In this document: positions 9,288 through 25,356 of the stretch, one piece after another | Layout: each line of letters begins with the position of its first letter | How positions within the stretch are numbered: position 1 is the stretch's first letter | From: an uncultured Clostridia bacterium | GTDB taxonomy: Bacteria > Bacillota > Clostridia > Christensenellales > UBA1242 | Direction of reading: 5' to 3' | NCBI GenBank assembly: GCA_949841045.1 | Contig: CATKXS010000006.1 | Coordinates: forward strand, 1 to 62,897 | Length of the DNA stretch: 62,897 nt | The notes under the pieces: generated by a model | Told to the model about the DNA's origin: nothing | The model's database searches: none | Seen by the model: only the letters and a program-made list of their open reading frames with translations | Program-made: the position numbers and the translations under genes

Positions 9288-12200
9288 ATGAAAAAGATAA
9301 ATAGTACAGCAAAATTTACCTTAATATTTTTAGTGGCTATGATGACTGTTTTTATGTTGGCTGGAATACTATTTAGTACAAATAGTTTTAGTTTTGCCAG
9401 TGAAAACAATTTAAAAGTTGCTGATGAAAATGAAGGGGATGTGGATATATTTCTTTCTGATTTGTCAAATAGTTATCTAACTGCAGGATATTTGCCTAGT
9501 GGTGTTGTTAAAGACCAAACTAATACTGGTGCAATACTTTCAGTAAAGATAGATGGAGCAGCAACCTATTTTAAAAAAGGCCTTTATACTCCAACAGAAA
9601 AAAGGTTTATCTACAATATAAGCAATTTAAATTATAAATACTTTTCTAGTTATATTGGCGTACAAAGCGGGACTTCTGCAACTGGGAAGGCTGTTTTTGG
9701 TATTGATTTATCGAACTCAGCAACAAGCGGTTGGGTCACAAAATATTCAAGTGAAGACATGACTTCAAATGATAGTGCAAAAAATATTCTCGTAAATATA
9801 GAAGGTTATTCTTATATGAGAATTAGAGCGGATTTCGCAAGTGGCACTAGAACAACAGCGCAAGCAGTATGGGCAGATGCTAAATTTACAGACAATGAAT
9901 CAAATGAGTTTAAACATTTGGTTAAATCTGTCGCTGAATATGATGAAATACTAAAAAATGATTTTCAGAATGCTGACTTGTCTAATAAAGATTATGAACT
10001 TGCACTACTTCAACGCAATTATGTAAGCAAGTTTGGAACAAATGGCTATGCCGCTTTGCATAATTACATTTTATCTAATGATAACAATGCTCAAGCATTT
10101 TATTGGCTTTTCAACGATGTAGATGTTCTTAGAATGTATACAACAGGTGGAGTGCCAGAAAATGTTGATATTTATAAGAAAAATAGTACATATAATTTAG
10201 CAAGTTGGTCAAATTCTTTAAGAGTATTGACAAGTCTATACACAGCTTATAAAGATGACCTTGCAGATGATAGTCTTTCAGAACTTGGAAATCGTAGAGG
10301 GGACATTTATCAAAAGATGATGATTTCTCTTTCACTCACACATTCAAAGAGGGTTCGTTTTTGGATTTATGACATGGGTCCAAACATGGAATTTAATAAT
10401 ACAAGCAATGATTCAAATGCGGTTGTAAGATATGCAGTTTTTAAAAAGATGTGGCTTGCTGGCAAACTAGACAACAAAGTGTTTGAGAATATCGAAGTTG
10501 AAGAAATGCGTTTAATTATGAACACTTTGCTTCCAGATAATGAAATAGAATGGCTTTTGGATTATTGGCAATGGAAGGGGACTAAAGGACCTTATTCACA
10601 TATGGCATATTTGCACGCTTGGGAATTTTGGTCAGGTGCTCCTCAATTTTATGACCCAGCAAAAAAAGATTATTATTATGAAAAATATAGATTAGATGGT
10701 TATGGAATTGAATATAAGAAATATATAACACATGGATGGATGATGTTTGAAACAGGTGGTGTTTGCTGGAACATGTCAAACATGGGTTCAAATATGACAG
10801 CTGTTTGGGGACACCCATCAACACCTCTTGGACAATCAGGTTATGTAGAACATGTGGCTTATGCAGATTATTATAAAAATGCAAATGGTGAAGGATATTG
10901 GGCATTGACAAATGATGTCTTTGGCTGGATAAACACAAACTTTAGAAACTTCAATAATCTTGGAAGCGCTGGCGGTTGGTATACCTCAAGAGCAATGCTT
11001 GACTGGGGAACAGGTTCTTACACAAGTTTTCAAAGCGGAACTTATTTGATTTTAGCTCAAGCAGCAATGAATGATTTCGCTAATTATGAAAAAGCAAAAG
11101 AATTAAATATACTAGCCGGAATTTATTCAGACGACCTTGTAAAACAAGAAGAAATTTATCGTCAAGCATTGAATGCTCAAAAGATAAATCTAGATTCTTG
11201 GTTTGGAATTATCAATAACTATGTAGCACAGCAGAAATCGGGTGAAGATTTTATAAATCTTGCAAGAGAACTTGCTGATGCTTTAAAATATTATCCTCTC
11301 CCTATGTATGATATGATGAGATTGATTGCTAGATATGCCTCTCAACCTGAATATTTGGCAGTTATTAATATGATTCAAGCGGAAAATTTGAAACTTGCAA
11401 GTAAAGCAATAGAATCGCAAGTTTTGCAATCAAACATTACAAGAATAATGGCAAATTATTTGCTTGGAAGAGTGGATACAGAAGTAGCTAAATTTGAGTT
11501 TGATGGTGATGGCGCTGGCACATTATCTCTTGGAAATATGTATGAAACCTCTCAGCCAACTTGGGAATATAGCTTAGATGGCGGAAATAATTGGATTATA
11601 ACCGATGAAAAAGTTCTTCAATTGACAAGTGAACAAGTTGAACTTATCAATACAGAGGACGATATTAAAGTGCATATTATTGGAACTGAAAGAACAGAAA
11701 AAAATACTTATGTTATTGATATAACAAAATCAAATGCTCCAACAGGTTTTTATGTAAATGACTGGGAAAACAAAGTTTTCGGACTTGACGAGGCTATGGA
11801 TTGGAGATTTAAGGGCGACCTCTCTTGGACTAGATATTCAAAACAGCAGCCAGATTTAACGGGTGATAAAATAATAGAAATCAGAAGACGAGCAACAGGT
11901 ACAGTGATGGCAAGTGACGAGGCAAGCTATACACTAACTTCTGCTGGTGAAGACGACTCTCTGAAAAAATATATTCCAATAAAACATTTATCTATATATG
12001 ATGTTTCATCTGAAGCTATAAAAAATCAGGGTGATGCAAAAAATATTATAGATGGAAATTATAATACAAGGTGGCACTCCGACTGGAACGGAAATGATAG
12101 AGAAAGATATATTATTATAGAATTTAGTCAAGCGTTTGCTCTCACCGGTATGGACTATATACCTGCTGGTGGTGGTAACGGGAAAATCCTTCAAGGCAAG

Positions 12201-14708
12201 ATTTATGGAAGTGGAACAGGCGAGGAGTGGACAGAGATTGCAAGTGTAGATTGGCAAAACAATGAAGATTTGAAATCTGTAGAATTTTTAAATAATGAAT
12301 TAAAATTGAAGTATATAAAAATTGTGGGCGAAAAATGCTCTGGAAGCAAAAGTTTTATAAGTGGAAGAATGTTTAATTTCTATCATAATGAAATTGCTTC
12401 TGCAAATGATAAGCCTACGGCAGCTTTGGAATATAGTACAAAAACGCTCACTAATGGTGATGTTACAGTAAATTTAGTAAACTCAAGTGCAAGTATTATT
12501 GTGACTAATAATAATGCGAGGACTTCTTATACATTTACAAAAAATGGAAGCTTTACTTTTGAATTTAAAGACGCAAATGGGCTAACTGGTTCTGCAACAG
12601 CTGTTGTAGACTGGATTGATAGAAAAGCGCCTACTGCTGAGGCAAGCTATAGTACAACTGACAAGACTAAAAATAATGTCGTTGTGACATTAACTTTCAG
12701 TGAAGATGTTGTAATAAACAATAATGGAGGCAGCAACACATACACATTTACATCAAATGGTGAGTTTACCTTCTACTTTACTGACAAAGCGGGAAATCAG
12801 GGCTCTTACACCGCGAAAGTGTCAAATATATATAACACTCGACCTAATATTATAAAAAAGGAATTCAACACGACTGAACCCACTAAAGATGATGTTATAG
12901 TTACATTCACTCTTGATAGAGCGGTTAGAGAATATTCTACTTTAACTTATAGCGAAACTTTTACTTATACATTTACAAGCAATACTTCACGAATCTTTAT
13001 TTTCTACGATGAACTTGGCAACAGTATTGCAAATCAAGTTAATGTAAGTTGGATAGATAGGACACCTCCAATTGGAAATATAGTTTATAGCACGCTTAAT
13101 CCAGCAAATAAAGTTACTGCATATATTGAATTTAATGAAGTGAATGTATCCATCATAAATAATGGAGGTCAAAATTCATATACTTTTACTGAAAATGATG
13201 AGTTTACTTTTGAATTTGTAGATAGAGCAGGCAACAAGAATACTGCAACGGCAAGAGTAAATTGGATTGACAAGACCGTTTATGCACCTGAAATTATTTA
13301 TAGTACTACAACTTTTACAAATAAAAATGTAACAGCTTCTCTTAGAGTTGATGGAAAAATAATTGATACTTTTGTCTTTGAAGAGAATGGAAAACATGTT
13401 TTCAATTATACTCAAAATGGAAATACTTATTCTGCAACAGCACTAGTAAGTTGGATTGATAAAACAGTGCCAACTGCAACAATCACTTATAGTACATTAA
13501 ATTGGTCTAGATTTGATATAACAGCTTCGGTGGCATTTGATGAAACAGATGTAGTAATAACTAATAATAGAGGCTTAAACACTTATACATTCAGTGAAAA
13601 TGGAACTTTTGAATTTTCATTTAGAGATAAGGCTGGAAATGTAGGTACAGCTTTGGCAAAAGTTACCTGGATTTATAAAAGTGTTCCTAAAGCAATTATT
13701 TCTTACAATATAACTCAAAAAACAAATAAAAATGTAATAGCAAGTGTTGTTGATTTTGAACGTCCTGAAAATGTTGAGGAAAATTCTTTCAATATTTACA
13801 AAAAGTCTATAACCATGACTAATAATTTTGGAAGCAAAAATCATACTTTCACTGACAATGGAACGTTCACATTTGAGTTTGTGGATGGAGCTGGAAATGA
13901 AGGTAGGGCAGTTGCCGCTGTTGATTGGATTGACAAAGTTGTTCCAACCGCAAAATTAGATTACAGTACTTATGACATTACTAGAGACCCTGTAAAAGTT
14001 GTCATAACTTTCGATAAAGAAAATGTGGAGATTTTAAACAATAACGGTTTAAATAGCATTACATTTGAGGATAATGGCACTTATACTTTTGAATTTGTAG
14101 ATGAACTTGGCAATTTAGGTTCTGCAGAAGCAGTTGTCAATTGGATAAACAAAAAGTTACCTGTGGTAAACATTGTTTATGATATAACTGAAAAAACAAA
14201 TAAAGATGTTGTTGCGACAATTTCTTTTGAAGAGAGTGATGATGTTGTCATTGTAAACAATGATGGAAACAACAGTTATACTTTTACTGAAAACGGTACA
14301 TTCACATTTGAGTACGTTTATGGAGATGGAAATTTTGCAAGTATAACTGCTGAAGTGACTTGGATTAAAAAGAACATTACTATTAAATATTATGAAAGCG
14401 ATAATTTAGTAAATGAAGATGTAATTTCTTTTGGTTCTGGTTATCAAATATTATTTAAAGCAAATGAATATAAAGATAAAGAATTTCTTTATTGGATAAG
14501 CGGAGAACAAATTTATCGCGAGGGTGATATTTTAAGTCTTGACGATGACCTAGTATTGAATGCTGTATATAAAAATATAAATGACAATACTGAAGGCGAT
14601 TCTGAAAAGACTAATATCGGTTTGATAGCAGGAATAACTGTTGGTGCAGTTGCTTTAGTAGGTGTTATAGTTATAGTAGCAATTGTAATAAAAAAGAAAC
14701 ATAAATAA
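9288..14708 (+). CDS. 1806-aa surface protein: signal peptide, NPCBM, putative Cys-His catalytic domain, F5/8C (CBM32), tandem Ig-like repeats, C-terminal TM anchor
   Basis: FLSDL...YIGV...AVWADAKF (NPCBM); GGVCW...EHVAY; IIDGNYNTRWHS (F5/8C); repeated YTFTENGTFTFEFVD.AGN...WIDK; TM followed by KKKHK. Confidence 0.8.
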   Translation: MKKINSTAKFTLIFLVAMMTVFMLAGILFSTNSFSFASENNLKVADENEGDVDIFLSDLSNSYLTAGYLPSGVVKDQTNTGAILSVKIDGAATYFKKGLYTPTEKRFIYNISNLNYKYFSSYIGVQSGTSATGKAVFGIDLSNSATSGWVTKYSSEDMTSNDSAKNILVNIEGYSYMRIRADFASGTRTTAQAVWADAKFTDNESNEFKHLVKSVAEYDEILKNDFQNADLSNKDYELALLQRNYVSKFGTNGYAALHNYILSNDNNAQAFYWLFNDVDVLRMYTTGGVPENVDIYKKNSTYNLASWSNSLRVLTSLYTAYKDDLADDSLSELGNRRGDIYQKMMISLSLTHSKRVRFWIYDMGPNMEFNNTSNDSNAVVRYAVFKKMWLAGKLDNKVFENIEVEEMRLIMNTLLPDNEIEWLLDYWQWKGTKGPYSHMAYLHAWEFWSGAPQFYDPAKKDYYYEKYRLDGYGIEYKKYITHGWMMFETGGVCWNMSNMGSNMTAVWGHPSTPLGQSGYVEHVAYADYYKNANGEGYWALTNDVFGWINTNFRNFNNLGSAGGWYTSRAMLDWGTGSYTSFQSGTYLILAQAAMNDFANYEKAKELNILAGIYSDDLVKQEEIYRQALNAQKINLDSWFGIINNYVAQQKSGEDFINLARELADALKYYPLPMYDMMRLIARYASQPEYLAVINMIQAENLKLASKAIESQVLQSNITRIMANYLLGRVDTEVAKFEFDGDGAGTLSLGNMYETSQPTWEYSLDGGNNWIITDEKVLQLTSEQVELINTEDDIKVHIIGTERTEKNTYVIDITKSNAPTGFYVNDWENKVFGLDEAMDWRFKGDLSWTRYSKQQPDLTGDKIIEIRRRATGTVMASDEASYTLTSAGEDDSLKKYIPIKHLSIYDVSSEAIKNQGDAKNIIDGNYNTRWHSDWNGNDRERYIIIEFSQAFALTGMDYIPAGGGNGKILQGKIYGSGTGEEWTEIASVDWQNNEDLKSVEFLNNELKLKYIKIVGEKCSGSKSFISGRMFNFYHNEIASANDKPTAALEYSTKTLTNGDVTVNLVNSSASIIVTNNNARTSYTFTKNGSFTFEFKDANGLTGSATAVVDWIDRKAPTAEASYSTTDKTKNNVVVTLTFSEDVVINNNGGSNTYTFTSNGEFTFYFTDKAGNQGSYTAKVSNIYNTRPNIIKKEFNTTEPTKDDVIVTFTLDRAVREYSTLTYSETFTYTFTSNTSRIFIFYDELGNSIANQVNVSWIDRTPPIGNIVYSTLNPANKVTAYIEFNEVNVSIINNGGQNSYTFTENDEFTFEFVDRAGNKNTATARVNWIDKTVYAPEIIYSTTTFTNKNVTASLRVDGKIIDTFVFEENGKHVFNYTQNGNTYSATALVSWIDKTVPTATITYSTLNWSRFDITASVAFDETDVVITNNRGLNTYTFSENGTFEFSFRDKAGNVGTALAKVTWIYKSVPKAIISYNITQKTNKNVIASVVDFERPENVEENSFNIYKKSITMTNNFGSKNHTFTDNGTFTFEFVDGAGNEGRAVAAVDWIDKVVPTAKLDYSTYDITRDPVKVVITFDKENVEILNNNGLNSITFEDNGTYTFEFVDELGNLGSAEAVVNWINKKLPVVNIVYDITEKTNKDVVATISFEESDDVVIVNNDGNNSYTFTENGTFTFEYVYGDGNFASITAEVTWIKKNITIKYYESDNLVNEDVISFGSGYQILFKANEYKDKEFLYWISGEQIYREGDILSLDDDLVLNAVYKNINDNTEGDSEKTNIGLIAGITVGAVALVGVIVIVAIVIKKKHK

Positions 14709-14802
14709 AATGTTTTGTTAAATAAAGAACGCTAGTTTAGTCAACATTTTTGAAATTTGCGAAAAAAAGTTTGATAAATCTCACGTTATTCTTACGTTCA
14801 TA

Positions 14803-14841
14803 AATAAAAAAGAACTCTTTAGCTAAAGAGTTCTTTTTTTT
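14803..14841. terminator. Bidirectional terminator
   Basis: aaaaaagaactctttagctaaagagttcttttttt perfect inverted repeat. Confidence 0.8.
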
Positions 14842-14849
14842 GTTTTTTA

Positions 14850-14940
14850 AATTGTAAGTTATCCTTTAATATGGCAAGCAATTATTTATCTTTATTTTAT
14901 CATATACTCTTTAAAAATGAAAAAATTAGTGACATAAATT
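14850..14940 (-). repeat. Copy B of the promoter/leader element seen at 1540-1635
   Basis: aattgtaagttatcc...ggcaa.caattatttat...tatcatata...gtgaca shared with copy A. Confidence 0.7.
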
Positions 14941-15115
14941 TAAAATTGGGCATGGAATTTTTGACATTGTAATTAAAATATATTATAATTCTTAGTATAA
15001 AAGTGGTTAGAAATAACAAAATTTATTATAACATAAATTTTGTAAGTCACTTTTTACAAATTGGCTTTAGAAATTTACTTTGATTATGTTGAAAAATTAT
15101 TAATAAGGAGAATTT

Positions 15116-18100
15116 ATGGTGGATAAAAAGCAAACTTCATCAAATAAAAGTCTATCAAAATCCAGTACAATTAAACCTACAACTGGGACTAAAACTAATT
15201 CTACAATTAAATCAAATGATAAAACGAGTGCGGCTTCAAATAGTTCGATTAACGTAAATAGTTTAAAAGTTCAAGCTAAATCAAAGCCTTCGGCTGATAC
15301 GGCGACCTCAATACATACTTCGACAAGCCAAACTTCTAGAGCAAATAATAAAAACAAAAAGAGCAATATCGCAATTTCGATAATTGCTTGTATATTGGTT
15401 GTAACCTTAATAATAGGTATGCCTATAGGTTTTAAATTTGGCAATAGGGGTGAAAAGGTTATCCGTCTTTTGCCATCACAAACCGTTTCAATCAATAAGC
15501 CAACATCAAAAGACAAAGTTGTGCTTGGGCAGGTAGAACCTGACGATTCTCTCCTTGAAAATGTTTTTAAGAATGAGTATGCGTCTACTACTGCAGTTGG
15601 TTATTATGGCAAAGTGACAAACAGCAATGTTGAAAGAGTTAAAGCTGACACGGTTAAACAAAGTGAAGGTCGTGCTTCAGTTTATCCAACTTTCGGAAGG
15701 AATTTGAGTGCAAGTGCTGAGGAGAAGAATGCAATTATTGGGGAATCTAGTTACTTAACTGCGACTGGTACTGCAAATGCTGGTGGCGGAAATTATCGAT
15801 GGATAAATGAAAGCGGTTATCTCTTTAATGGCACAACTTCTGCGCCAGAGGCTACTGGCAGACGCCTTTACAAGCACACAGCGTCAAACGGTCTTTATCA
15901 TGGAAATGTTTCTGATGATGAGTCAGGTGTTGAAAAGGTAGTCACTATAAAACCTCGTGGTTATAATGGTTATAGTGTTACAGGTATATACGCTCCAGCT
16001 GGTGAAGTTATAAAAATTCAATTAAGCGAAGCGGATATGAACGCCACAGGTGGAATTGTTGTGCATATTGGTCAGGCTCTTTACAATGGTCAGGCAAACA
16101 ATATTTGGGCAGGTAAGCCTATGCCACGTATGCCACACTTATTAAACACTTTGACTATAAGTAAGGATACCGCAACCTACGATGAAAACACTGGCTTATG
16201 GACTGGTTATGTTGGCTCTTTCCTTGGTGGACCGATATATATTAGAAACGAAAATGTTGCATATACTGCTACAATTTCAGGTGGTGTTGAGTATTTACAT
16301 TTCATTTTAGGTTATACCACTAAAGAAGAATTTAACAGAATAAAAGAAAACTGTTCTGCGCCATATTTTGATTTAGAGGTGTGGAATTATGGAGTGCTTC
16401 ACTCTGGTTCTAAAATTTATGCACAACGTTTCTCTTACGATGAGCTTTATAAAGCTGCAATTCTTTGGGAAAAAGTATCTTCTGTAACAACCACTGGTTC
16501 AAGTCAAGGAATTGTATTCCTTTATGAACCATTTGTTGCCGCAGGTGCAGCTGTTGCATTCCCAGGACGCAGGTCCGTTAACTGTCCAGAAGGGTGGATG
16601 AGTAATTCACTTAATTATAATGGTATAGTTACATCGGGTGCTTGGGGTAATTTCCATGAATATCATCATAATTTTCAAGGCTATGGTGTAGGAAATGGCG
16701 GTGAAGTTACAAATAATGCAATGACGCTTGTCTCTTATGCGTTATTTACTAAGATTTCTTCTAAAAGAGGTATTTCGAGTTTTGGTGCGCAAGGATTGGG
16801 AGGTTGGAACAACTATACGAGTGCAACCTGGGCGCTTGAGGAAACTTTAAAAATAGCACGTCCAAATGTGTCTCCAAGCAATGGAAATCAGGGCCTTGCA
16901 TTATATGCTACATTACTCCATAACTTCGGACCCGATGATTTTATTAAAGCAAAGGTTGCAGGTGGCGGACAATCTTACGCAGCATATATGAATGCTTGGC
17001 AGAAAGTAACGCATAACAACATGTATTACTATTTTAACAACATTCTTAAGGGAACGGGAATCTCCAATAATGCAGATTCATCTTACCCAATGTTTGTTCC
17101 TGTTTCATGTGTATATCAAACTGGCAGGAGTTATATGTATGATGGGCAGAAGAAATATATAAAAACAATGCAACCATATATGATTACTCATGATGAGCCA
17201 TTTAAAATTGACCTTAGTCGCTATAATGCACCAAACGGTCAGTATGCGAGTGGAAGTGTGGTTATCCCAGATGGTTTTAGTTATAGAATAAAGAGTGTGA
17301 CTAAGCCTGCACATGGTTCAATCAGTATTGATGGTAAATACAATCTCACCTATACACCTAACAATAATGATAAGAGTATTTATTCTGGTCAGATAGTTGT
17401 GACGCTTGAAATCACAAAGAATGATGGTGCGTTTAAAGTTGATGATGTCGATTTGATACTCGAATTTGAATTGTCACGTGAAATGAACAAGATGACTTTG
17501 GAAAGAACGACCTATACTTATTCTGTTGACAATATGTATACTGATGCGCAAACTGCATTTGAAAAGAATTTTAAAGGGTACGACACAGTAGACGAAAAAT
17601 ACAACCATTCTAACCCAACACAGAATTGCAACACTGATATTTGGTTCTATCCAGATACTGAGGAAAATAGAACTAAGTATCCTAATGCTCCAGAAAATTA
17701 TTTCATACACGATAACACTATTGAAGTTATAGACGGCAAACTTTATTTTGAAAATGAGGGTAAGTATAGAATTTATCTTCGTGGTCGAACGAATTGCGCG
17801 CTCTATTATTCAATAGACGGTGGGACAAATTATCAGCTTGGTGCCAAGATAAATGATACAACTGCACCAAATAAAAGTTATCTTTTCCGAGATGGTCACC
17901 CAGTGGCAAGTGTAAACGACAGCAATACTTATTTTGACTTAGAACTTGAAGCTAACAGCTGGGTTTATATTAAGGAAATACTTATTGTTCAAACTTCATC
18001 TTCAAGTTTTATAGGTGTAGGAATGAGACAGTGGACTCAAACTATGTTTACTATGGTTGAAACACATTATAATTCGTCAAACCAGGAAGTTGAAAGTGAA

Positions 18101-19237
18101 GAGAGTGAAGATTATCAATATACAGAAATAATTTATAATGACCTTAATGGACGTCCTGTTGCCGTTGAAGTAAACAGCAAAGATGGTTCGACTAGTTATT
18201 ATAAAATTGTCAATAATGTACGAGTTGAGTCAACTTCAGAAGAAGTATCAGAGCTGACCGAGTCAAAACTTATTGCTCCGACAGTTACAGAAAACAATCA
18301 GCCATATGTGAACGCGTATAGAACGACTTATATTCAAGAGGATAATAGTAATTTTGAAAGTGAATATTTCTATCAAAGGTCGTACAATTATAATTATGTT
18401 GGTGAGCCAGATGTCATAACTGACAACTTAACTCAAACCTATGTTGAAGAACAATCAAACTATGTTCCTTGGGAAAATACTTCTGAATTTGCAATCAACA
18501 ATTTGTTTGATGGTGATTCAAGTACCTATATCCACTCAGGAAAAGGTGAAGGCGTTTCAGCAAGCAACCCAGTCATAATCACTGTTGATTTGGGCGAAGC
18601 TGTTTCGGCAAATATTCTAAGATTATATCCAAGTAATTTCAGCGGAAATCATCGTAATGCATTCCCAAAAAATTTTAAAATAGAAGGAAGTCTTGACGGT
18701 GAAGAATATTTTGAAATGGGCAAATGGACTAATGCAAATGCACCAGCTGTGTATTCAGACTTACCATTTTACAATAGTTTTTCTTACACTTTCAGATACT
18801 ATAAAATAACTGTTACTGCAACCAATAGTGGTACTAGCAGGCTTGCTCTGGCAGAAATTAAATTATTAAATACTTTAATTTTGACAGGTAACGGCGGAAA
18901 TCATATTTTACCTTCTAATGAAAACTTGATTTATAACGGAGAGTGGGAATTAAAGCAAGCATATAGCAATTTTGGAAATGTATATGTCGGCAAACAAAAT
19001 GCAACACTTACTTTTGATATTATTGGTACGAGGGTTGGCTTCTTAACTTCGTCTGCATTTGAAAATAACTTTGAAGTCTATATTGACGGGAAAAAGGTTG
19101 ATTCGATTGAGCTAAAAGAAGATAATGGCCCTTATCCATTGACTTACTTATGTGATGCTTTGACGAATGGCAAGCATCGTGTAGTATTAAAGTGTACTGG
19201 AGAGGTGGCAATCGACTCGGTGATTATATATCAATAG
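15116..19237 (+). CDS. M60-family metallopeptidase (putative mucin O-glycopeptidase) with CBM32, N-terminal membrane anchor
   Basis: TGIYAPAGE; WGNFHEYHH...GEVTNN (HExxH...E); LFDGDSSTYIHS F5/8C domain; S/T/K-rich N-terminus followed by a TM segment. Confidence 0.85.
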   Translation: MVDKKQTSSNKSLSKSSTIKPTTGTKTNSTIKSNDKTSAASNSSINVNSLKVQAKSKPSADTATSIHTSTSQTSRANNKNKKSNIAISIIACILVVTLIIGMPIGFKFGNRGEKVIRLLPSQTVSINKPTSKDKVVLGQVEPDDSLLENVFKNEYASTTAVGYYGKVTNSNVERVKADTVKQSEGRASVYPTFGRNLSASAEEKNAIIGESSYLTATGTANAGGGNYRWINESGYLFNGTTSAPEATGRRLYKHTASNGLYHGNVSDDESGVEKVVTIKPRGYNGYSVTGIYAPAGEVIKIQLSEADMNATGGIVVHIGQALYNGQANNIWAGKPMPRMPHLLNTLTISKDTATYDENTGLWTGYVGSFLGGPIYIRNENVAYTATISGGVEYLHFILGYTTKEEFNRIKENCSAPYFDLEVWNYGVLHSGSKIYAQRFSYDELYKAAILWEKVSSVTTTGSSQGIVFLYEPFVAAGAAVAFPGRRSVNCPEGWMSNSLNYNGIVTSGAWGNFHEYHHNFQGYGVGNGGEVTNNAMTLVSYALFTKISSKRGISSFGAQGLGGWNNYTSATWALEETLKIARPNVSPSNGNQGLALYATLLHNFGPDDFIKAKVAGGGQSYAAYMNAWQKVTHNNMYYYFNNILKGTGISNNADSSYPMFVPVSCVYQTGRSYMYDGQKKYIKTMQPYMITHDEPFKIDLSRYNAPNGQYASGSVVIPDGFSYRIKSVTKPAHGSISIDGKYNLTYTPNNNDKSIYSGQIVVTLEITKNDGAFKVDDVDLILEFELSREMNKMTLERTTYTYSVDNMYTDAQTAFEKNFKGYDTVDEKYNHSNPTQNCNTDIWFYPDTEENRTKYPNAPENYFIHDNTIEVIDGKLYFENEGKYRIYLRGRTNCALYYSIDGGTNYQLGAKINDTTAPNKSYLFRDGHPVASVNDSNTYFDLELEANSWVYIKEILIVQTSSSSFIGVGMRQWTQTMFTMVETHYNSSNQEVESEESEDYQYTEIIYNDLNGRPVAVEVNSKDGSTSYYKIVNNVRVESTSEEVSELTESKLIAPTVTENNQPYVNAYRTTYIQEDNSNFESEYFYQRSYNYNYVGEPDVITDNLTQTYVEEQSNYVPWENTSEFAINNLFDGDSSTYIHSGKGEGVSASNPVIITVDLGEAVSANILRLYPSNFSGNHRNAFPKNFKIEGSLDGEEYFEMGKWTNANAPAVYSDLPFYNSFSYTFRYYKITVTATNSGTSRLALAEIKLLNTLILTGNGGNHILPSNENLIYNGEWELKQAYSNFGNVYVGKQNATLTFDIIGTRVGFLTSSAFENNFEVYIDGKKVDSIELKEDNGPYPLTYLCDALTNGKHRVVLKCTGEVAIDSVIIYQ

Positions 19238-19487: not shown

Positions 19488-22238
19488 TTAACCTTTTAAT
19501 TTTTTTTCTTTATTCCTATGACCAAGTCTTAAGAAAAATTTGACAAGTTCAAAATAAGGAATAATGAGGAGAGCTGTCCCAAGTGCTAGTAGCCACTGCC
19601 ACCAATTAATTGTTGTTACGCCAAGAGCAGAGTCAAAAGCTCCTAGTGGAACAAGTACAATTATTATTGTAAGTAGCGCCGAGCCAAGAAATGCCCAGTT
19701 TAAATATTTGTTATCAAATGGATTTGCTTTAAATATTGATTTTGTTCTGTGTTTTAAATTGAATGCATGGAAAAGTTCAGTAAAGCACATATTTAAGAAG
19801 CAAATGGTAGTTACAACTTCACTTAACAGCCCCAGAACAAAGGTTGTTATGCAGTAAAGCGAAAGTGAAAGAGTTGTGACAAACAGGGCAGAACAGAATA
19901 TATTTATTCCAACTTCACCTTTAAAGAGGTTGCCCGAGTTCTTGACGGGTTTTCGTTTCATAATATTATCTTCTGCCTTTTCAAATCCTAGAGCCAAGCC
20001 AACAAAGGTGTCGGAGACAAAGTTTATCCAAAGTATAAGGGCAGGAGAGAAGAAATTATGGTCTCTGAAAATGAGAGTAATTGCTGTGAGAAGAATAAGT
20101 TCTGCGATTGATGTGCCAAGTAGGAACATGAGAATTTTGAGTATAGTATCATAAATTCTTCGTCCTTCTTTTACCGCACCAACTATGGTTGCAAAATTGT
20201 CATCGGTCAGAATCATATCTGACGCTTCCTTTGTTACGTCTGTCCCGGTTATGCCCATGCCAACGCCAATGTCTGCCGCCTTGATGGAAGGGGCGTCATT
20301 AACTCCGTCTCCAGTCATGGCAACAATTTTATTATTGGCTTTGAGTGCCTTTACAATTTTGACTTTATGTTCTGGACTAACTCTCGCGTAAACGCGATAA
20401 TTAAGCACCACTTTGGCAAATTCTTCATCAGGAATTTCATTAAGTTCTTTGCCAGTGATTACTGCTGAAAGGTCACTGCAAATGCCGAGTTCTTTGGCGA
20501 TTGCAAATGCGGTGTCTTTGTGGTCACCAGTAATCATAATTGTTGTAATTCCTGCCTGCTTACAGGTTTTGATTGCGTCTTTAACCTCTTCGCGTGGTGG
20601 GTCAATCATTCCAACAAGGCCCAAGAAACAAAGGTCGAATTCGGTATTTTCTGAGGTTGGTTTTGAAATCTTTTCGACATTTTTCATTGCAAAAGCGAGA
20701 TTTCTAAGGGCTCCGCCACCAAATTCTGCATTTATTTCCAAGATTTTTTCTTTATCAGCATTTGTTATCTTGCGGATTTTTCCATTGTCGAGTATCCGAT
20801 TGCAACGGGCAAGTATACTGTCTACGGCGCCTTTTGTATAAACTGTCGTATTTCCGTCAACCTCATGGAAAGTGGACATAAGTTTTCTATCGCTATCAAA
20901 AGGAATTTCTTTTATTCGCTCTAGCCCGCCTTCAAGTTTTTCTTTGTTAAAGCCAAGTTTATATCCATATTGAACAAGGGCAATTTCTGTTGGGTCGCCG
21001 ATAGATTCAAGCTTGCCATTTTCCTCTCTTACTTTTGTATCATTGCAAAGGAGCATACATCTTAAAAGTTCTAATATATTTCGGTTTTCTGAAAAGCCAT
21101 TCTCCTCATTTAACTTTTCAAGAGTAATGCCGCCACCTGAGGCGTCATCAAATTTCATATGGTTGAGTTCGTCACAGCCATGCCCCATAAAATATGCTTT
21201 TCTTACTGTCATTTTGTTGAGAGTGAGTGTTCCCGTTTTGTCTGAACATATGATTTCTGTGCTTCCAAGCGTTTCAACAGCAGGCAGTGTTTTGACAATA
21301 GCTTGATGTTCGCTCATTCGTTTAACGCCCATTGAAAGGGTGACGGTGTTACAAGCGGGCAGTCCTTCTGGAATTGCACAAACAGCGATTGCGATTGCCA
21401 TTGAGAAAGAGGCGAATAGACTTACGTCTGTGCAAACGCCAACTATAAAAACAACAATGCATACTACAAGCACAATGGCGGTTATAATTAGATTTGTAGA
21501 TTTAAGTCTTTTTGTAAGAGGTGTTGTTGTATTGTCAATTTCAGATAGCGCACTTGCAATCTTACCCATTTCTGTATTCATGGCTGTTGCAACGACAACC
21601 CCTTGACCTCTGCCATAAGTTACCACGCTGCCCATAAATGCCATATTTATTTGGTCGCCAAGTGCAGGTGTTTCATTAAAGACGGCTAAGGCATCTTTTT
21701 CTACTGGCAGACTTTCGCCAGTGAGGGCACTTTCTTCAATTTTGAGAGAATTACTTTCAATAAGCCTTAAATCGGCAGGGACGATGTCACCAGCTTCAAG
21801 GACTACAATATCACCAATTACAACATCTTCTGTTTTGATTTTGATAAGTCTGCCATTTCGCATTACTTTGCAGTAAGGCTTGGTCATGTTTTTAAGTGCT
21901 TCCATTGCCTTCTCGCTTTTCCGCTCTTGCAGAAATCCGATAGTGCAGTTTACAAAGACGACAATGAAAATTATGCCTGCATCAACAAATTCGCCCACTG
22001 ATTTTTCAATAGCACCAAGTACTATGCTGATGATTGCGCTTATAACTAATATAATGATTAAAATATCCTTAAATTGATTTAAAAATTTTATAAAGCCCGA
22101 TTTTTTCTTTTTGCTTTGCAAAGCATTTTTACCATTTTCGGCTAACCTTTTCTTTGCTTCTGCATAAGAAAGTCCAGCTTGCGAGGTTTGCAAACTTTCC
22201 ATGCAATTATTGGCATTTTGAGAGAAAAAGTTATTCAT
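19488..22238 (-). CDS. Ca2+-type (P2) cation-translocating P-type ATPase
   Basis: TGES, PEGL, DKTGTLT, KGA, DPPR, TGD, GDGVND motifs. Confidence 0.93.
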   Translation of the reverse strand: MNNFFSQNANNCMESLQTSQAGLSYAEAKKRLAENGKNALQSKKKKSGFIKFLNQFKDILIIILVISAIISIVLGAIEKSVGEFVDAGIIFIVVFVNCTIGFLQERKSEKAMEALKNMTKPYCKVMRNGRLIKIKTEDVVIGDIVVLEAGDIVPADLRLIESNSLKIEESALTGESLPVEKDALAVFNETPALGDQINMAFMGSVVTYGRGQGVVVATAMNTEMGKIASALSEIDNTTTPLTKRLKSTNLIITAIVLVVCIVVFIVGVCTDVSLFASFSMAIAIAVCAIPEGLPACNTVTLSMGVKRMSEHQAIVKTLPAVETLGSTEIICSDKTGTLTLNKMTVRKAYFMGHGCDELNHMKFDDASGGGITLEKLNEENGFSENRNILELLRCMLLCNDTKVREENGKLESIGDPTEIALVQYGYKLGFNKEKLEGGLERIKEIPFDSDRKLMSTFHEVDGNTTVYTKGAVDSILARCNRILDNGKIRKITNADKEKILEINAEFGGGALRNLAFAMKNVEKISKPTSENTEFDLCFLGLVGMIDPPREEVKDAIKTCKQAGITTIMITGDHKDTAFAIAKELGICSDLSAVITGKELNEIPDEEFAKVVLNYRVYARVSPEHKVKIVKALKANNKIVAMTGDGVNDAPSIKAADIGVGMGITGTDVTKEASDMILTDDNFATIVGAVKEGRRIYDTILKILMFLLGTSIAELILLTAITLIFRDHNFFSPALILWINFVSDTFVGLALGFEKAEDNIMKRKPVKNSGNLFKGEVGINIFCSALFVTTLSLSLYCITTFVLGLLSEVVTTICFLNMCFTELFHAFNLKHRTKSIFKANPFDNKYLNWAFLGSALLTIIIVLVPLGAFDSALGVTTINWWQWLLALGTALLIIPYFELVKFFLRLGHRNKEKKLKG

Positions 22239-22345: not shown

Positions 22346-22374
22346 TTGACTTTTTAGGGCTCTTAATATAAAAT
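22346..22374 (+). promoter_or_regulatory. Sigma-A promoter giving a leaderless mRNA for the PurZ-like gene
   Basis: TTGACT-17bp-TAAAAT, ATG 6 nt later, no SD. Confidence 0.6.
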
Positions 22375-22380
22375 ATAAAT

Positions 22381-23703
22381 ATGAGTTATGTTGGTAAAAT
22401 ACATATAGTATATGACGGAATGTGGGGCTCTTGTGGAAAGGGTAAGTTTTGTGGTGAACTGGCTCTTGACAAAAGTCTAGATATTTCAGTTTGCGTAAAT
22501 AACAATGCGCCAAATGCTGGTCATTCTTTTGTATTTGAAGATGGACGCAAAGTTGTGACAAAACATATTCCAATCGGTTTTGTAAATAAAAATATTCCCT
22601 ATCTTGTACTAGGGGAAAGTTCGGTTATTGATTATGATAGGCTTGTTTATGAACTTGAAGAATATAAGGATTTACTTAACGGAAGAAAACTTTATATAGC
22701 AGATACTGCTGGCGTAATTTTGCCAGAGCATAGGAAAAGCGAACTTCAAAATCTTAAAACAGGAAGTACTTTCAGCGGTGCCGGCTCAGCGCTTGTTGAT
22801 AAAATTCAAAGGAAAAGCCCACTTGTAAGAGGGGACGAGCGGTTTAAGGAACTTGAAAGAAAAGGGCTTATTAAAATAGTGCCTTCAAAGACATTTTTTG
22901 CTATGATTTATAATGGATTGAGTGGTTTTAGCGGGAAAGAAAATATTTTGGTTGAACTTTCTCAGGGTGACGCGCTTAGTTTAAATAGTGATAACTATCC
23001 ACATACAACTTCTCGCGATTGCACACCAGCGCAAGCACTTAAAGATATTCATGCGACTGATTACATTCAAAATGTAAGAAAATATTGTGTTTTCAGACCT
23101 TATCCTATAAGAATAAATAATGAAAGCAAAGTTGGTCATATTTATACTGGTGATTTTGGTGGTGCTAAAGAAATCACTTGGGAAGAGGTTTGTGCTAGGT
23201 GCGGACTTGACAGCGAAGAAATAAAAAGAAATGAATTTACAACAAACACTAAAAGACTTAGAAGGGTGGCGGAACTTTCCATTAAACAATTTGGTGAGAT
23301 GCTTATGGATACAAAACCAGACGAATTGTTTTTGAATTTTGCCGAATATGTTGACGGTGGAATAAAAGATATGACACCAGAAAAAGCACAAAAAGTTCAA
23401 TATTATTTTGAAAACCCAGAAGATATGTCTGATGAAAATTTTGAAAAAGTTTGTGCGCTAAACTGGTCGCTTGAACATGTTCTTGGGTATATCCAAGATA
23501 TGGAAGAAAAATTTAAAAATATTTGCAAGGGCAAAGTAGAAGTAAATATAACTAAAATTGGAACTGGTGCAAAAGCGGGCGAAACTTTAAATAGAGAAGA
23601 TTTAAAACAAGCTTCATCTTCTAGACATGCAATAAAAGATATGAATCCTTATGATTATGCAGATAAGGACAATGTCCCAAACTTTGAAATGGGTTTAAAT
23701 TAA
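22381..23703 (+). CDS. purZ: Adenylosuccinate synthetase homolog with PurZ signatures
   Basis: DGMWGSCGKG (Ser for the PurA catalytic Asp), PNAGH, GST, QG..LSLN..YP.TTSRDCTP, PIR, TTNTKRLRR, PDELFLNFAEY (instead of TKLD). Confidence 0.72.
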   Translation: MSYVGKIHIVYDGMWGSCGKGKFCGELALDKSLDISVCVNNNAPNAGHSFVFEDGRKVVTKHIPIGFVNKNIPYLVLGESSVIDYDRLVYELEEYKDLLNGRKLYIADTAGVILPEHRKSELQNLKTGSTFSGAGSALVDKIQRKSPLVRGDERFKELERKGLIKIVPSKTFFAMIYNGLSGFSGKENILVELSQGDALSLNSDNYPHTTSRDCTPAQALKDIHATDYIQNVRKYCVFRPYPIRINNESKVGHIYTGDFGGAKEITWEEVCARCGLDSEEIKRNEFTTNTKRLRRVAELSIKQFGEMLMDTKPDELFLNFAEYVDGGIKDMTPEKAQKVQYYFENPEDMSDENFEKVCALNWSLEHVLGYIQDMEEKFKNICKGKVEVNITKIGTGAKAGETLNREDLKQASSSRHAIKDMNPYDYADKDNVPNFEMGLN

Positions 23704-23757: not shown

Positions 23758-24006
23758 ATGAGTAAAGAAAATAAAACAAAAGCTGAAATAATTGGTGGTG
23801 CTTGTTGTGGAATACTTATGCTTGTTTGTGTCATTGTTTATCTCATTTTAGGTATGACATTAAACTTTTGGCATCCGGGCTGGCTTATTCCAGCTTGTGG
23901 GGGAATTTCTTGCGGAATAATCGGAATAGTAAGTGGTACAATTTCTGATTTGAAAAAACTTAAAAATAGCCATGACGATGAGAAAAAAGAAGAAGATGTT
24001 GATTAA
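23758..24006 (+). CDS. Small two-TM membrane protein
   Basis: AGGAGG RBS; VYLILG...WHPGWLI motif. Confidence 0.7.
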   Translation: MSKENKTKAEIIGGACCGILMLVCVIVYLILGMTLNFWHPGWLIPACGGISCGIIGIVSGTISDLKKLKNSHDDEKKEEDVD

Positions 24007-24084
24007 AAGAGATGCAAAAAAGCATCCTTTTTTTTATTTCAAATAAACTTGCTTTTTTTCAGTTTTTTTGTTAAACTTATGTGT

Positions 24085-25356
24085 ATGAAAATATCGGTCT
24101 TGACACTTGGTTGTAAAGTTAACAAATATGAAAGTGATTCGCTCGTTCGCAGTCTTAACGAGCGAGGCTTTGTTGCAGATGACAAACTTGAAGAGGCTGA
24201 TGTGTATGTAATCAATACTTGTGCTGTTACTAAGGAGGCTGAAAAAAAGTCTAGGCAGATGATTGCAAGATGTCGAAAGTTTAATAAAGGTGCAAAGATT
24301 TTTGTTTGCGGTTGTGCCTCTCAAAACAATAATATTCAGTTTTTGGATAAGAATGTTGAAGTGGTGCTTGGAACGAGCGGAAAGTTAAAAATTATTGAAT
24401 TTGTTGAAAATTTTGCAAAAAACAACGAAAATTATGTAAAAAACAGCCAATTTATCGAAGAATTACCACTTATTTATCAAGATGACATGATTGCCCAGCA
24501 GTCACGAACACGGGCTTATATCAAGATTCAAGACGGTTGCAATAACTTCTGCTCTTATTGTATTATTCCTTATCTTCGTGGACGAAGTAGGTCAAGAGAG
24601 CTTAATTCCATTCTTTCAGAAGTTAGCCTTCTAGGTGAGAATATAAAGGAAATAGTGCTTACTGGAATAAATGTGACCGACTATAAAATAAATGGTGAAA
24701 AGGGGCTTTTAACACTTCTTCAAGAACTTGATAAATTTGGAAAGCGAATAAGATTAAGTTCAATGGAGGACACACTTATAAGTGAAGGCTTTGTGAAAGG
24801 TCTTGCGGGCCTCAAAAACTTTTGTCCCCATTTTCATCTTTCACTTCAAAGTGGCTCTGATAGCGTGCTGAAAAGAATGAACAGGCATTATACTGCGGAG
24901 GAATTCGCAAGTTCTGTAAAACTTCTTAGAAAGTATTTTCCAAATGCTGGAATTACAACAGATGTCATAGTTGGCTTTTGTGACGAAAGTGATGAAGAAT
25001 TTGAGAGTACATATAGATTTATTGAAAATGTTAAATTTAGTCAGCTTCATATTTTTAAGTATTCGCCTCGCTCGGGAACGGTTGCCTATAAACTTTATAA
25101 GGATTTGCCGTTTGAGATTAAACAGGCAAGACTTGTTAGGCTTGAAAAGTTAAATGCTCTACTTAAAGAAGAATTTATAAAATCAAACGTAGAAGGCGAA
25201 GTCTTATTTGAAGAAAAGGTAGGCGACTACTTTGCAGGCTATACTAAAAACTATATTAGGTGTTATTGTCAAAGCGAAGAAGATTTAACAAACGAGATTC
25301 GTAAGGTGAGAATGCGTGGCGCGTTTAAAGACGGAGTTAAAGTCGAGATTATTTAA
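24085..25356 (+). CDS. mtaB: tRNA ms2t6A methylthiotransferase
   Basis: TLGCKVNKYES, NTCAVT, KIQDGCNNFCSYC; upstream of rpsU. Confidence 0.9.
   Translation: MKISVLTLGCKVNKYESDSLVRSLNERGFVADDKLEEADVYVINTCAVTKEAEKKSRQMIARCRKFNKGAKIFVCGCASQNNNIQFLDKNVEVVLGTSGKLKIIEFVENFAKNNENYVKNSQFIEELPLIYQDDMIAQQSRTRAYIKIQDGCNNFCSYCIIPYLRGRSRSRELNSILSEVSLLGENIKEIVLTGINVTDYKINGEKGLLTLLQELDKFGKRIRLSSMEDTLISEGFVKGLAGLKNFCPHFHLSLQSGSDSVLKRMNRHYTAEEFASSVKLLRKYFPNAGITTDVIVGFCDESDEEFESTYRFIENVKFSQLHIFKYSPRSGTVAYKLYKDLPFEIKQARLVRLEKLNALLKEEFIKSNVEGEVLFEEKVGDYFAGYTKNYIRCYCQSEEDLTNEIRKVRMRGAFKDGVKVEII

Follow-up and report, generated by a model that had tools for sequence, protein, structure and literature searches.

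A gene at positions 22381 to 23703 (forward strand) of contig CATKXS010000006.1, from an uncultured Clostridia bacterium (GenBank assembly GCA_949841045.1), encodes a 440-amino-acid (aa) protein whose sequence places it firmly in PurZ, not in PurA or PurZ0. The stretch analyzed, 62,897 nucleotides (nt) counted from position 1 of the contig, is called the window here; its source genome is referred to as G000. Phage PurZ takes the first step toward DNA that contains 2,6-diaminopurine (Z). We lean, without strong conviction, toward the reading that the protein is an active PurZ-type ligase and that its gene has become an ordinary chromosomal gene in a lineage of small-genome gut Clostridia; its residues and its modeled fold make PurZ-type chemistry likely. 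Relatives of the protein form a cellular PurZ clade with three forms, which is new here. An earlier description made from the DNA letters alone (the original prediction) had taken the gene for a stand-alone, chromosomal PurZ-like gene outside any prophage.

Sequence matches and modeled fold

Open reading frame (ORF) calling in the window returned the gene with an ATG start, and translation recovered both the ORF and every motif that the original prediction had quoted. These are the P-loop GSCGKG (residues 16 to 21, positions 22426 to 22443), NNNAPNAGHSF (residues 40 to 50), DGRK (54 to 57), ELSQG (192 to 196), YPHTTSRDCTP (206 to 216), the aspartate-loop segment TTNTKRLRR (287 to 295, positions 23239 to 23265), PDELFLNF (313 to 320), and LNFAEY (318 to 323, positions 23332 to 23349), all on the forward strand.

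Pfam assigned the adenylosuccinate-synthetase (AdSS) domain PF00709 to the protein with an expect (E) value of 2.8e-20. Among NCBIfam models, PurZ (NF038379) ranked first at 174 bits, followed by archaeal-type PurA (NF003295) at 105.1 and purA (TIGR00184) at 78.5, and PHROG 1211, which is PurZ, matched at 3.9e-51. A sequence search of the PDB gave the same order: phiVC8 PurZ (2.2e-38) and S-2L PurZ (4.9e-38) came ahead of Pyrococcus horikoshii PurA (7e-17), PurZ0 (5e-14), and Escherichia coli PurA (2e-06).

An AlphaFold2 model was built from a 49-sequence alignment, with a predicted local distance difference test (pLDDT) score of 91.8 and a predicted template modeling (TM) score of 0.91. With this model, the top Foldseek match was phiVC8 PurZ in complex with AMPPcP, dGMP, and Asp (TM score 0.87 on the target), and S-2L PurZ and E. 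coli PurA scored 0.85 and 0.60. VIA-align superposed the model on PurZ (6FKO) over 335 of 343 residues, with a root mean square deviation of 2.2; bacterial and eukaryotic PurA gave VIA-align Z scores of 28 to 34, and the higher scores of the short enzymes are weighed below.

Specificity residues

Specificity determinants were taken from the paper on the S-2L structure (PMC8342488) and mapped onto a MAFFT alignment of 94 sequences. At S23 of S-2L, which corresponds to the catalytic Asp13 of E. coli PurA, the query has S17; Ser occupies this position in all 47 ungapped cellular rows, in all phage PurZ rows, and in PurZ0, and Asp occupies it in all PurA rows shown. In keeping with this, PMC12884076 gives, in the part that treats this position, Asp13 as conserved in 99% of PurA and Ser in 100% of 147 phage sequences. 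S131 of S-2L aligns with S129 of the query, a position that holds Ser in 49 of 49 cellular rows and in PurZ0 and Thr in PurA. R280 aligns with R294 and is Arg throughout (49 of 49 cellular rows, PurA, and PurZ0).

The sites that contact sugar, aspartate, and donor base follow the same pattern. S-2L R240-V241 corresponds to R244-I245, with Arg in all 49 cellular rows, Ile in 48 of the 49, and Arg-Val in both PurA and PurZ0. By alignment only, I245 pairs with V241 and the insertion that follows it is longer than in phiVC8; according to the section of PMC8342488 on this site, V241 of S-2L is pressed against C2' by the following insertion, which accounts for the preference for deoxyribose. The loop T273 to T276 of S-2L reads TTNT in the query (T287-T288-N289-T290), mostly TTVT in cellular rows, TTVT in PurZ0, and differently in PurA. 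Replacement of V by N is limited to the small subclade of the query (3 of the 13 rows of its clade), and TTVT is found in 9 of those 13. At the donor-base site, where the adenine-type residues of phage PurZ are N305, F306, and Q308/N297, the S-2L set N305/F306/Q308 corresponds to N319/F320/E322. Cellular rows have N (48 of 49), F (49 of 49), and Q or, in 6 of 49, E; PurA has T/K/D, and PurZ0 has S or T/M/D. This site is closed by the conserved C-terminal strand and loop of AdSS, IGTGA (residues 393 to 397, positions 23557 to 23571, forward strand; G335/P336 of S-2L), where alignments of relatives show no variation at G394 and G396 and almost none at T395.

As aligned, then, the query carries the PurZ state at the discriminating positions, apart from N for V275 and E for Q308. 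The original prediction had named three PurZ-defining swaps. Two of them, Ser for Asp13 in GSCGKG and LNFAEY for TKLD, hold; the third, Leu for an Arg of PurA, depends on the alignment, since MAFFT pairs R303 of E. coli with R292 and L293 with the Arg that follows.

Phylogeny and viral relatives

Two quick IQ-TREE runs (LG+C20; supports are Shimodaira-Hasegawa-like approximate likelihood ratio test [SH-aLRT] values, not bootstrap) agreed with each other. The second run left out PurA_L010, a mis-called ORF with a branch length of 10, and 29 near-duplicate or redundant rows. PurZ and PurZ0 together split from PurA with a support of 99, and PurZ0 formed a separate clade (100) with the query outside it. 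The query fell into a 13-row clade of about 440-aa proteins (100), itself inside a 55-row clade (99) made up of all cellular rows except L115 (49 rows) and seven IMG/VR sequences. Thus, set against PurA, archaeal PurA, PurZ0, and PurZ, the query branches with PurZ; sequence matches, residues, and trees agree on the PurZ-like, not PurA-like, character that had been proposed for it.

The free tree puts the cellular clade inside a set of viral PurZ lineages. When the other 25 viral rows were forced together, the tree was 4.7 log-likelihood units worse, and the approximately unbiased (AU) test did not reject it (P = 0.375). We therefore dropped the claim that movement from phage to cell is settled. 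Of the "domesticated PurZ" in the original prediction, the chromosomal setting stands, but a phage origin is plausible only, because the AU test retains a tree in which the viruses are a sister clade.

A search of IMG/VR (2.9 million contigs) returned 297 relatives, the best of them 36% identical to the query; among the 80 that were kept, none had a protein of the 440-aa clade as its best match. Nine viral rows (L124 to L130, L145, and L166) are 51 to 57% identical to NUDIX-linked cellular forms described below, and L124 lies among phage replication genes. No gene of the Lyase_1 superfamily was found in seven of eight records of related viruses, six of which are 92 to 100% complete; the eighth, an incomplete record, has a 36.9-bit fragment.

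Two further groups of sequences were noted in the trees. L115, a 577-aa ORF from a metagenome-assembled genome (MAG) of Ilumatobacteraceae (Actinomycetota), is PurZ/PurZ0-like, and its branch leaves the tree close to the base of the PurZ and PurZ0 lineages; it has Ser for Asp13, an aspartate loop that reads G-S-V-S, and N in place of the dimer Arg. L116 to L120 (in G179, G182, G185, and G186) are further PF00709 paralogs of 407 to 538 aa (140 to 268 bits), AdSS-like families whose very long branches fall between those of PurA and PurZ. The catalytic Asp is retained in them, whereas N-A-G-H has become Q-A-S-H and V241 has become H; they coexist with PurA, PurB, and a PurZ-like gene.

Chromosomal setting and promoter

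The PurZ-like gene lies among ordinary chromosomal genes. Divergent from it is a P-type cation ATPase gene (19488 to 22238, reverse strand), and downstream are a MiaB/MtaB-like radical-SAM gene (24049 to 25356) and rpsU, encoding S21, in frame between 25356 and 25698, which are the flanks that the original prediction had named. Beyond rpsU follow rplS, a DNA-alkylation-repair gene, comM, dprA, and topA. The G+C fraction of the 22- to 24-kb bin (0.331) is close to that of the adjoining bins. The neighbors named here and below, from about −13 kb to +9.5 kb, include no phage gene, and a prophage origin of the locus was rejected; the flanks of the gene in 10 other genomes are likewise ordinary and without phage character. 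The proposed chromosomal location outside any prophage is thus borne out, and the flanks in relatives do not show a prophage remnant. Conserved synteny was rejected: only G138 has the MtaB neighbor in common, and the other contexts vary. An SDF symporter gene lies upstream in G029 only.

A sigma-70/SigA-type promoter is predicted at positions 22346 to 22374 (forward strand), with TTGACT at −35 (22346 to 22351), a 17-nt spacer, and TAAAAT at −10 (22369 to 22374). It is the top consensus match of the intergenic region (10 of 12 positions), and no Shine-Dalgarno sequence was seen on inspection before the ATG at 22381. Of 18 ortholog loci inspected, 12 show a layout of −35, TGnTATAAT, 6 nt, and ATG. 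Given the 6 nt between the −10 element and the ATG and the recurrence of this layout in orthologs, the transcript probably has no leader; as a sequence pattern, the leaderless sigma-A promoter of the original prediction is well matched.

Between the PurZ-like gene and the radical-SAM gene is an ORF for a hydrophobic 82-aa protein (23758 to 24006), followed by a terminator-like hairpin and T-run (24011 to 24036), on the forward strand. Cotranscription with the PurZ-like gene is possible but doubtful. The ORF is not conserved beside orthologs (best tblastn E value, 0.91), and its NCBIfam match to a pilin-like conjugal transfer protein of the Mbov_0395 family is subthreshold (E = 3.8e-06; 26.5 bits, with the cut-off at 40). 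Elsewhere, the window holds a large signal recognition particle RNA and a tRNA-Gly gene. Upstream, at 9288 to 19237, two very large secreted-type proteins are encoded, one of 1,806 aa with NPCBM and F5/8 type C domains and the other of 1,373 aa with Peptidase_M60 and F5/8 type C domains; they are compatible with a mucin- or glycan-foraging gut lifestyle.

Clade-specific segments and selection

The 440-aa form differs from phage PurZ by additional sequence in its C-terminal part. A helical insert at about residues 326 to 385 (positions 23356 to 23535, forward strand), modeled as two helices (333 to 344 and 351 to 381; pLDDT, 91 to 98), is missing from phage PurZ and from the cellular forms of about 360 aa. 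It is complemented by a conserved C-terminal tail, residues 405 to 440 (positions 23593 to 23700, forward strand), with the motif SRHAIKD.NP.DYADK.N.PNF, which has pLDDT values of 79 to 97 though it is mostly without regular secondary structure and which lies outside every PDB match. PurZ chains align with the model over about 335 residues in the range 4 to 409, and the sequence alignment with phiVC8 ends at residue 325. Within the 440-aa clade, mean column conservation is 0.85 in the core, 0.69 in the tail, and 0.64 in the insert. No Pfam match was obtained in the segment from 326 to 440, and its matches in a feature atlas reach only 0.83 to 0.85, the level of leads. The original prediction had seen extra C-terminal sequence as a tail of about 40 aa; the extra sequence is there, but it consists of an insert of about 60 aa plus a tail of about 36 aa. 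The two segments may perhaps be regulatory.

Among 19 sequences of the 440-aa clade, the ratio of nonsynonymous to synonymous substitution rates (dN/dS) is 0.07 to 0.17 in most pairs and 0.22 to 0.23 in the two most divergent ones; judged from these coding sequences, the PurZ-like gene is under purifying selection. This bears directly on the explanation that the gene is left over from a phage or mobile element and is decaying, without a function today, which we regard as very improbable. Its patchy occurrence (11 of 151 genus genomes), the different contexts between species, the broken copies at six loci, and the identical proteins in three species representatives are what decay or mobility would leave. 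Against decay, however, stand a dN/dS of about 0.1 across the clade, which includes pairs with dS of 0.3 to 1, a conserved promoter architecture, the retention of all catalytic residues, flanks without phage genes, and the lack of a 440-aa-clade best match among the 80 IMG/VR relatives kept. A maintained, active ligase remains the reading that we prefer.

Three observations concern individual orthologs. In L051 (G069/G199), the closest species-level relative (83% identity), two ORFs, of 318 and 148 aa, stand in place of the intact gene; that genome also has a canonical PurA, and replacement may be in progress there. L043, L044, and L045, from three species-representative MAGs, encode identical proteins (dS of 0 to 0.004, against 0.3 to 1 in other pairs) and share identical upstream DNA, which suggests recent transfer or very closely related genomes. 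L052, a 55%-identical ortholog, has TGA at the conserved Cys codon (W-G-S-*-G-K-G-K), just upstream of the called ORF start; the gene could be a pseudogene, the assembly could be in error, or the codon could specify selenocysteine.

A cellular PurZ clade and its NUDIX link

In a same-genus sample of 151 genomes, 11 have the 440-aa form, 8 have a canonical PurA, one (G064) has both, and about 130 have neither. When 185,579 species-representative genomes were scanned by pattern, 84 relatives turned up; the 80 retained come chiefly from gut Clostridia and Bacilli. Most of their MAGs bear the titles Clostridia, Eubacteriales, Christensenella, Bacilli, or "Tenericutes," candidate-phylum and Bacteroidota bins contribute single relatives, and many of the relatives lie on contigs of 100 to 700 kb. 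Genes of this clade are chromosomal; neighbors of the cellular forms include germination protease, ribosome-associated GTPase, and mini-RNase III genes.

Three forms can be told apart. The first is the stand-alone protein of about 440 aa, to which the query belongs. The second, of about 360 aa, has a 143-aa NUDIX gene (c1) directly adjacent, an arrangement seen at 25 of the 80 loci. The third consists of NUDIX-PurZ fusions of 510 to 540 aa (L061 to L063, L065 to L071, L074, L076, L083, and L108); the N-terminal NUDIX domain was confirmed by sequence in L062, and Pfam gives PF00709 plus PF00293 for 11 clusters of fusion length. Judged from a 50%-identical homolog in G000, the fused-type NUDIX is MTH1/NUDT1-like. 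ORF6N/Rha-type genes adjoin the NUDIX-PurZ module at 6 loci, and the c1 NUDIX matches the PADLOC candidate family PDC-S07 (E = 2.3e-10). For the 440-aa protein itself, PADLOC-DB 2.0 gave no family at an E value of 0.01 or below. Neither a PurZ clade in bacterial cells nor a module of PurZ with NUDIX was found described in the literature searched, which was mostly open access and did not extend to supplements that might list bacterial sequences.

The NUDIX link gives substance to a second explanation, pool sanitation or antiphage depletion, in which the NUDIX enzyme would convert a (possibly damaged) purine deoxynucleoside triphosphate to the deoxynucleoside monophosphate (dNMP) and the PurZ-like enzyme would succinylate it to a dead end closed to rephosphorylation, with no lyase needed, so that mutagenic nucleotides are removed or dGTP is drained during infection. 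Both versions seem unlikely to us. They would account for NUDIX adjacency (25 loci), for the N-terminal fusions with their NUDIX of MTH1/NUDT1-like character across its whole length, for the ORF6N/Rha-type genes and the PDC-S07 match, and for the gene in genomes without any Lyase_1 enzyme. The 440-aa clade, however, has no linked NUDIX, with an ortholog in only 3 of its 11 carriers; the enzyme lacks a PADLOC match, and no conserved sensor or regulator lies nearby. Moreover, the strong, constitutive-looking promoter would be unexpected for a pool-draining defense, and we know of no such succinylation sink. DUF1848 occurs in 6 of 11 carriers and 5 of 20 noncarriers. As obligate partners, the NUDIX ortholog, DUF1848, and the SDF symporter were rejected, since each shows weak enrichment or occurrence in a single genome.

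Host genome and proposed activity

The genome G000 spans 1.16 Mb in 34 contigs and is an estimated 95% complete. The PurZ-like gene is its sole PF00709 match, and no purA was found. Its purB is of the E. coli type, scores 604 bits (cut-off, 446), encodes 491 aa, and stands in tandem with pyrG on contig C21. G000 also has an aspartate ammonia-lyase, a class III ribonucleotide reductase (NrdD), and, on contig C11, a 162-aa NUDIX protein, which resembles MTH1/NUDT1 along its entire length (E = 1.4e-31) and is 50% identical to the fused NUDIX domain. No purC, IMP dehydrogenase, GMP synthase, or MazG-family gene was found in G000, and since the first three are missing, its purB would have no de novo role. 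A tblastn search of G000 gave no homologs of S-2L DatZ or MazZ at an E value of 1 or below. Of purA, purB, datZ, and mazZ, the four genes for which the original prediction proposed a genome search, only purB is therefore present. Its statement that no datZ, mazZ, dpoZ, integrase, or virion genes lie nearby holds genome-wide for DatZ and MazZ and at the locus for phage genes; DpoZ was not specifically searched.

The substrate, product, and physiological role that we infer are as follows. Expressed from its own putative leaderless SigA-type promoter, the enzyme would draw on ATP rather than GTP and phosphorylate a guanine nucleotide, most probably dGMP, at O6; the 5'-phosphate of this nucleotide would be bound by R144, the Arg of the dimer partner. 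L-Aspartate would then be joined to C6, giving N6-succino-2-amino-2'-deoxyadenylate (dSMP). In G000, PurB could cleave dSMP to the Z monophosphate dZMP, which would enter the deoxynucleoside triphosphate (dNTP) pool; in carriers without a lyase, dSMP may be the end product or the substrate of another enzyme. In the sister forms, the enzyme would act on dNMP released by the fused or adjacent NUDIX hydrolase: because the NUDIX genes are fused or adjacent, a dNMP derived from a dNTP is the suggested substrate, following the logic of phage MazZ. For the clade as a whole, editing or sequestering of the (d)G-nucleotide pool is more likely than full Z-DNA synthesis. The MTH1-like type of the fused NUDIX would also be compatible with clearing abnormal purine dNTPs.

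Several observations weigh against an active PurZ-type ligase with this role, beginning with those that concern its class. All NCBIfam scores are under the curated cut-offs, the 174 bits for PurZ against 300, the 105.1 for archaeal-type PurA against 368, and the 78.5 for purA against 395.55. The query departs from PurZ at the tip of the TTVT loop (N for V275) and at the adenine site (E for Q308). By fold alone, PurZ, PurZ0, and P. horikoshii PurA tie (Z scores of 40.7, 40.6, and 39.3), and therefore the fold points to the short archaeal/viral AdSS group without singling out PurZ. Six loci have broken copies, through a TAG in G029 and splits in L051, L085, L109, L105, and L107, so the gene is dispensable. 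Of the 11 carriers of the 440-aa clade, 3, G000 included, have the NUDIX ortholog, versus 1 of 20 noncarriers.

The other points concern the missing lyase. As a marker for purB, PF10397 gave 0 of 151 but misses the E. coli-type PurB, and it was replaced by NF006764, TIGR00928, and PF00206. With PurB of G000 as the query, purB was found in none of the 10 other same-genus carriers (a search without an internal positive control), and no Lyase_1 superfamily gene was found in the five most complete carriers (97 to 99%), with controls positive in all 14 genomes. In a broader sample of the clade, purB was missing from 21 of 26 carriers, and 19 of the 26 have neither purB nor purA; the five with purB are all among the seven with canonical PurA, three of them having it beside purA. 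G168 (97% complete) has purB with neither PurA nor a PurZ-like gene. This decoupling of purB from AdSS genes within the genus means that purB in G000 is possibly coincidental. Because most carriers lack purB, a classical synthetase-plus-PurB pathway cannot be the function common to the clade; to our knowledge, dSMP has no use in a cell that lacks a lyase.

Canonical purA, too, occurs without any Lyase_1 gene, in four of the five same-genus PurA carriers tested. In this reduced-genome genus, the two steps from IMP to AMP are scattered independently of each other (as seen in G001, G018, G064, G127, and G168), as an undiscovered lyase or a decaying pathway would leave them.

The gene content of G000 could also be read as xenologous replacement of PurA, in which IMP activity was regained or kept and the enzyme, with purB, makes AMP from salvaged hypoxanthine. 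We consider this explanation unlikely. The gene is the only PF00709 member in a 95%-complete genome that keeps purB without purC, a setting in which the only known use of PurB is to cleave (amino)adenylosuccinate; apt was not found in G000, Trp precedes Gly-Ser as in E. coli PurA, and the archaeal-type PurA fold is about as close as that of PurZ (39.3 versus 40.7). Nevertheless, all 47 ungapped cellular rows have Ser where PurA has the catalytic Asp13, the donor site is of the PurZ type, other carriers lack purB, and G064 holds both a canonical PurA and the PurZ-like gene. In addition, AdSS genes are missing altogether from about 130 of the 151 genus members, and apt is missing from 30 of 31 panel genomes, carriers and noncarriers alike, so the AMP supply of the lineage is independent of AdSS. 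For the same reason (apt in 1 of 31 genomes), apt proved uninformative as a discriminator between a PurA-like and a PurZ-like role.

At the other extreme, G000 might make dZMP and dZTP constitutively and carry Z in part of its own chromosomal DNA, which would be the first natural Z-DNA of a cellular organism. This reading draws on the presence of a PurZ-type enzyme, purB, NrdD, and an MTH1-like NUDIX and on the absence of purA; in its wider form, a non-Lyase_1 lyase would let about 80 gut species make Z. We think it improbable. The original prediction had offered Z-nucleotide synthesis or replacement of purA; both need a lyase, which G000 has in PurB but most other carriers do not, and neither is established. 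An active PurZ-type ligase in an ordinary chromosomal gene, acting on the (d)G-nucleotide pool, is the reading with which we proceed.

Comparison with known systems

PurA (TIGR00184; archaeal-type NF003295, P. horikoshii 5K7X) shares with the query its superfamily and, presumably, nucleoside triphosphate-dependent condensation of Asp on C6 of a 6-oxopurine nucleotide. In contrast to PurA, the query has Ser for Asp13, Ser for T129, and N-F-A-E for T-K-L-D; it scores far below the PurA cut-offs and is separated at an SH-aLRT of 99. Some relatives are annotated "adenylosuccinate synthetase" in public records, labels that would lead to false calls of AMP synthesis when the metabolism of these uncultured gut bacteria is modeled.

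PurZ0 (Gordonia phage Archimedes, 7VF6; Arthrobacter and Microbacterium phages) resembles the query in its fold (Z score of 40.6), in Ser for Asp13, and in the TTVT loop. It differs in having S/T-M-x-D and a GSxA P-loop, where the query has N-F-x-E and GSCG, and in forming its own clade (100), with PurZ0 tblastn E values of about 1e-12 to 1e-17. Published statements on its phosphate donor are inconsistent: one has the shift to ATP/dATP occur in PurZ, and another, in a passage of PMC12884076, assigns ATP to PurZ0.

MazZ, DUF550, and DutZ offer a parallel for the sister forms, whose NUDIX is adjacent or fused, as MazZ is described in the relevant parts of PMC8342488 and PMC12884076 as giving dGMP from dGTP. 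Unlike these enzymes, the NUDIX belongs to another protein family, and in the 440-aa clade it is unlinked and found in 3 of 11 carriers.

The closest counterpart is phage PurZ (phiVC8, 6FM1/6TNH; S-2L, 7ODX; NF038379). The query matches it in fold (TM scores of 0.85 to 0.87; Z score of about 40) and is 27 to 33% identical to it in sequence. Both have Ser in place of Asp13, Ser at S131, a TT(V)T loop, the Arg of R280, an insertion behind R240-V241, and an adenine site of the N-F-x-Q/N type, and the query lies on the PurZ rather than the PurZ0 side of the tree. Unlike phage PurZ, the query is chromosomal, carries about 95 extra residues in insert and tail, has no DatZ or MazZ in its genome and no phage genes around it, and falls below the PurZ cut-off. 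At single positions, it has Cys for Thr in GS(T/C)GKG, Ile for V241, T/V for C204, N for V275, and E for Q308. Most genomes of its clade also lack the purB on which phage PurZ relies.

PurZ has been treated as a phage enzyme. In the passage concerned, PMC13128860 reports natural dZ-DNA "exclusively in phage genomes," and the PurZ group described in PMC12884076 comprises 147 phage and 4 archaeal sequences, in a sampling of at most two prokaryotic sequences per phylum. According to the part of PMC8342488 on expression in E. coli, a Z-cluster was toxic there, with 3.9 to 12.1% substitution. Set against a phage-only PurZ, a conserved and selected PurZ clade in the chromosomes of gut Firmicutes, usually without adenylosuccinate lyase, raises three possibilities: cells use Z or succino-Z nucleotides, the missing lyase exists, or PurZ chemistry has been recruited for pool sanitation or defense. 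Its stand-alone and NUDIX-fused variants are also natural material for synthetic Z-DNA work.

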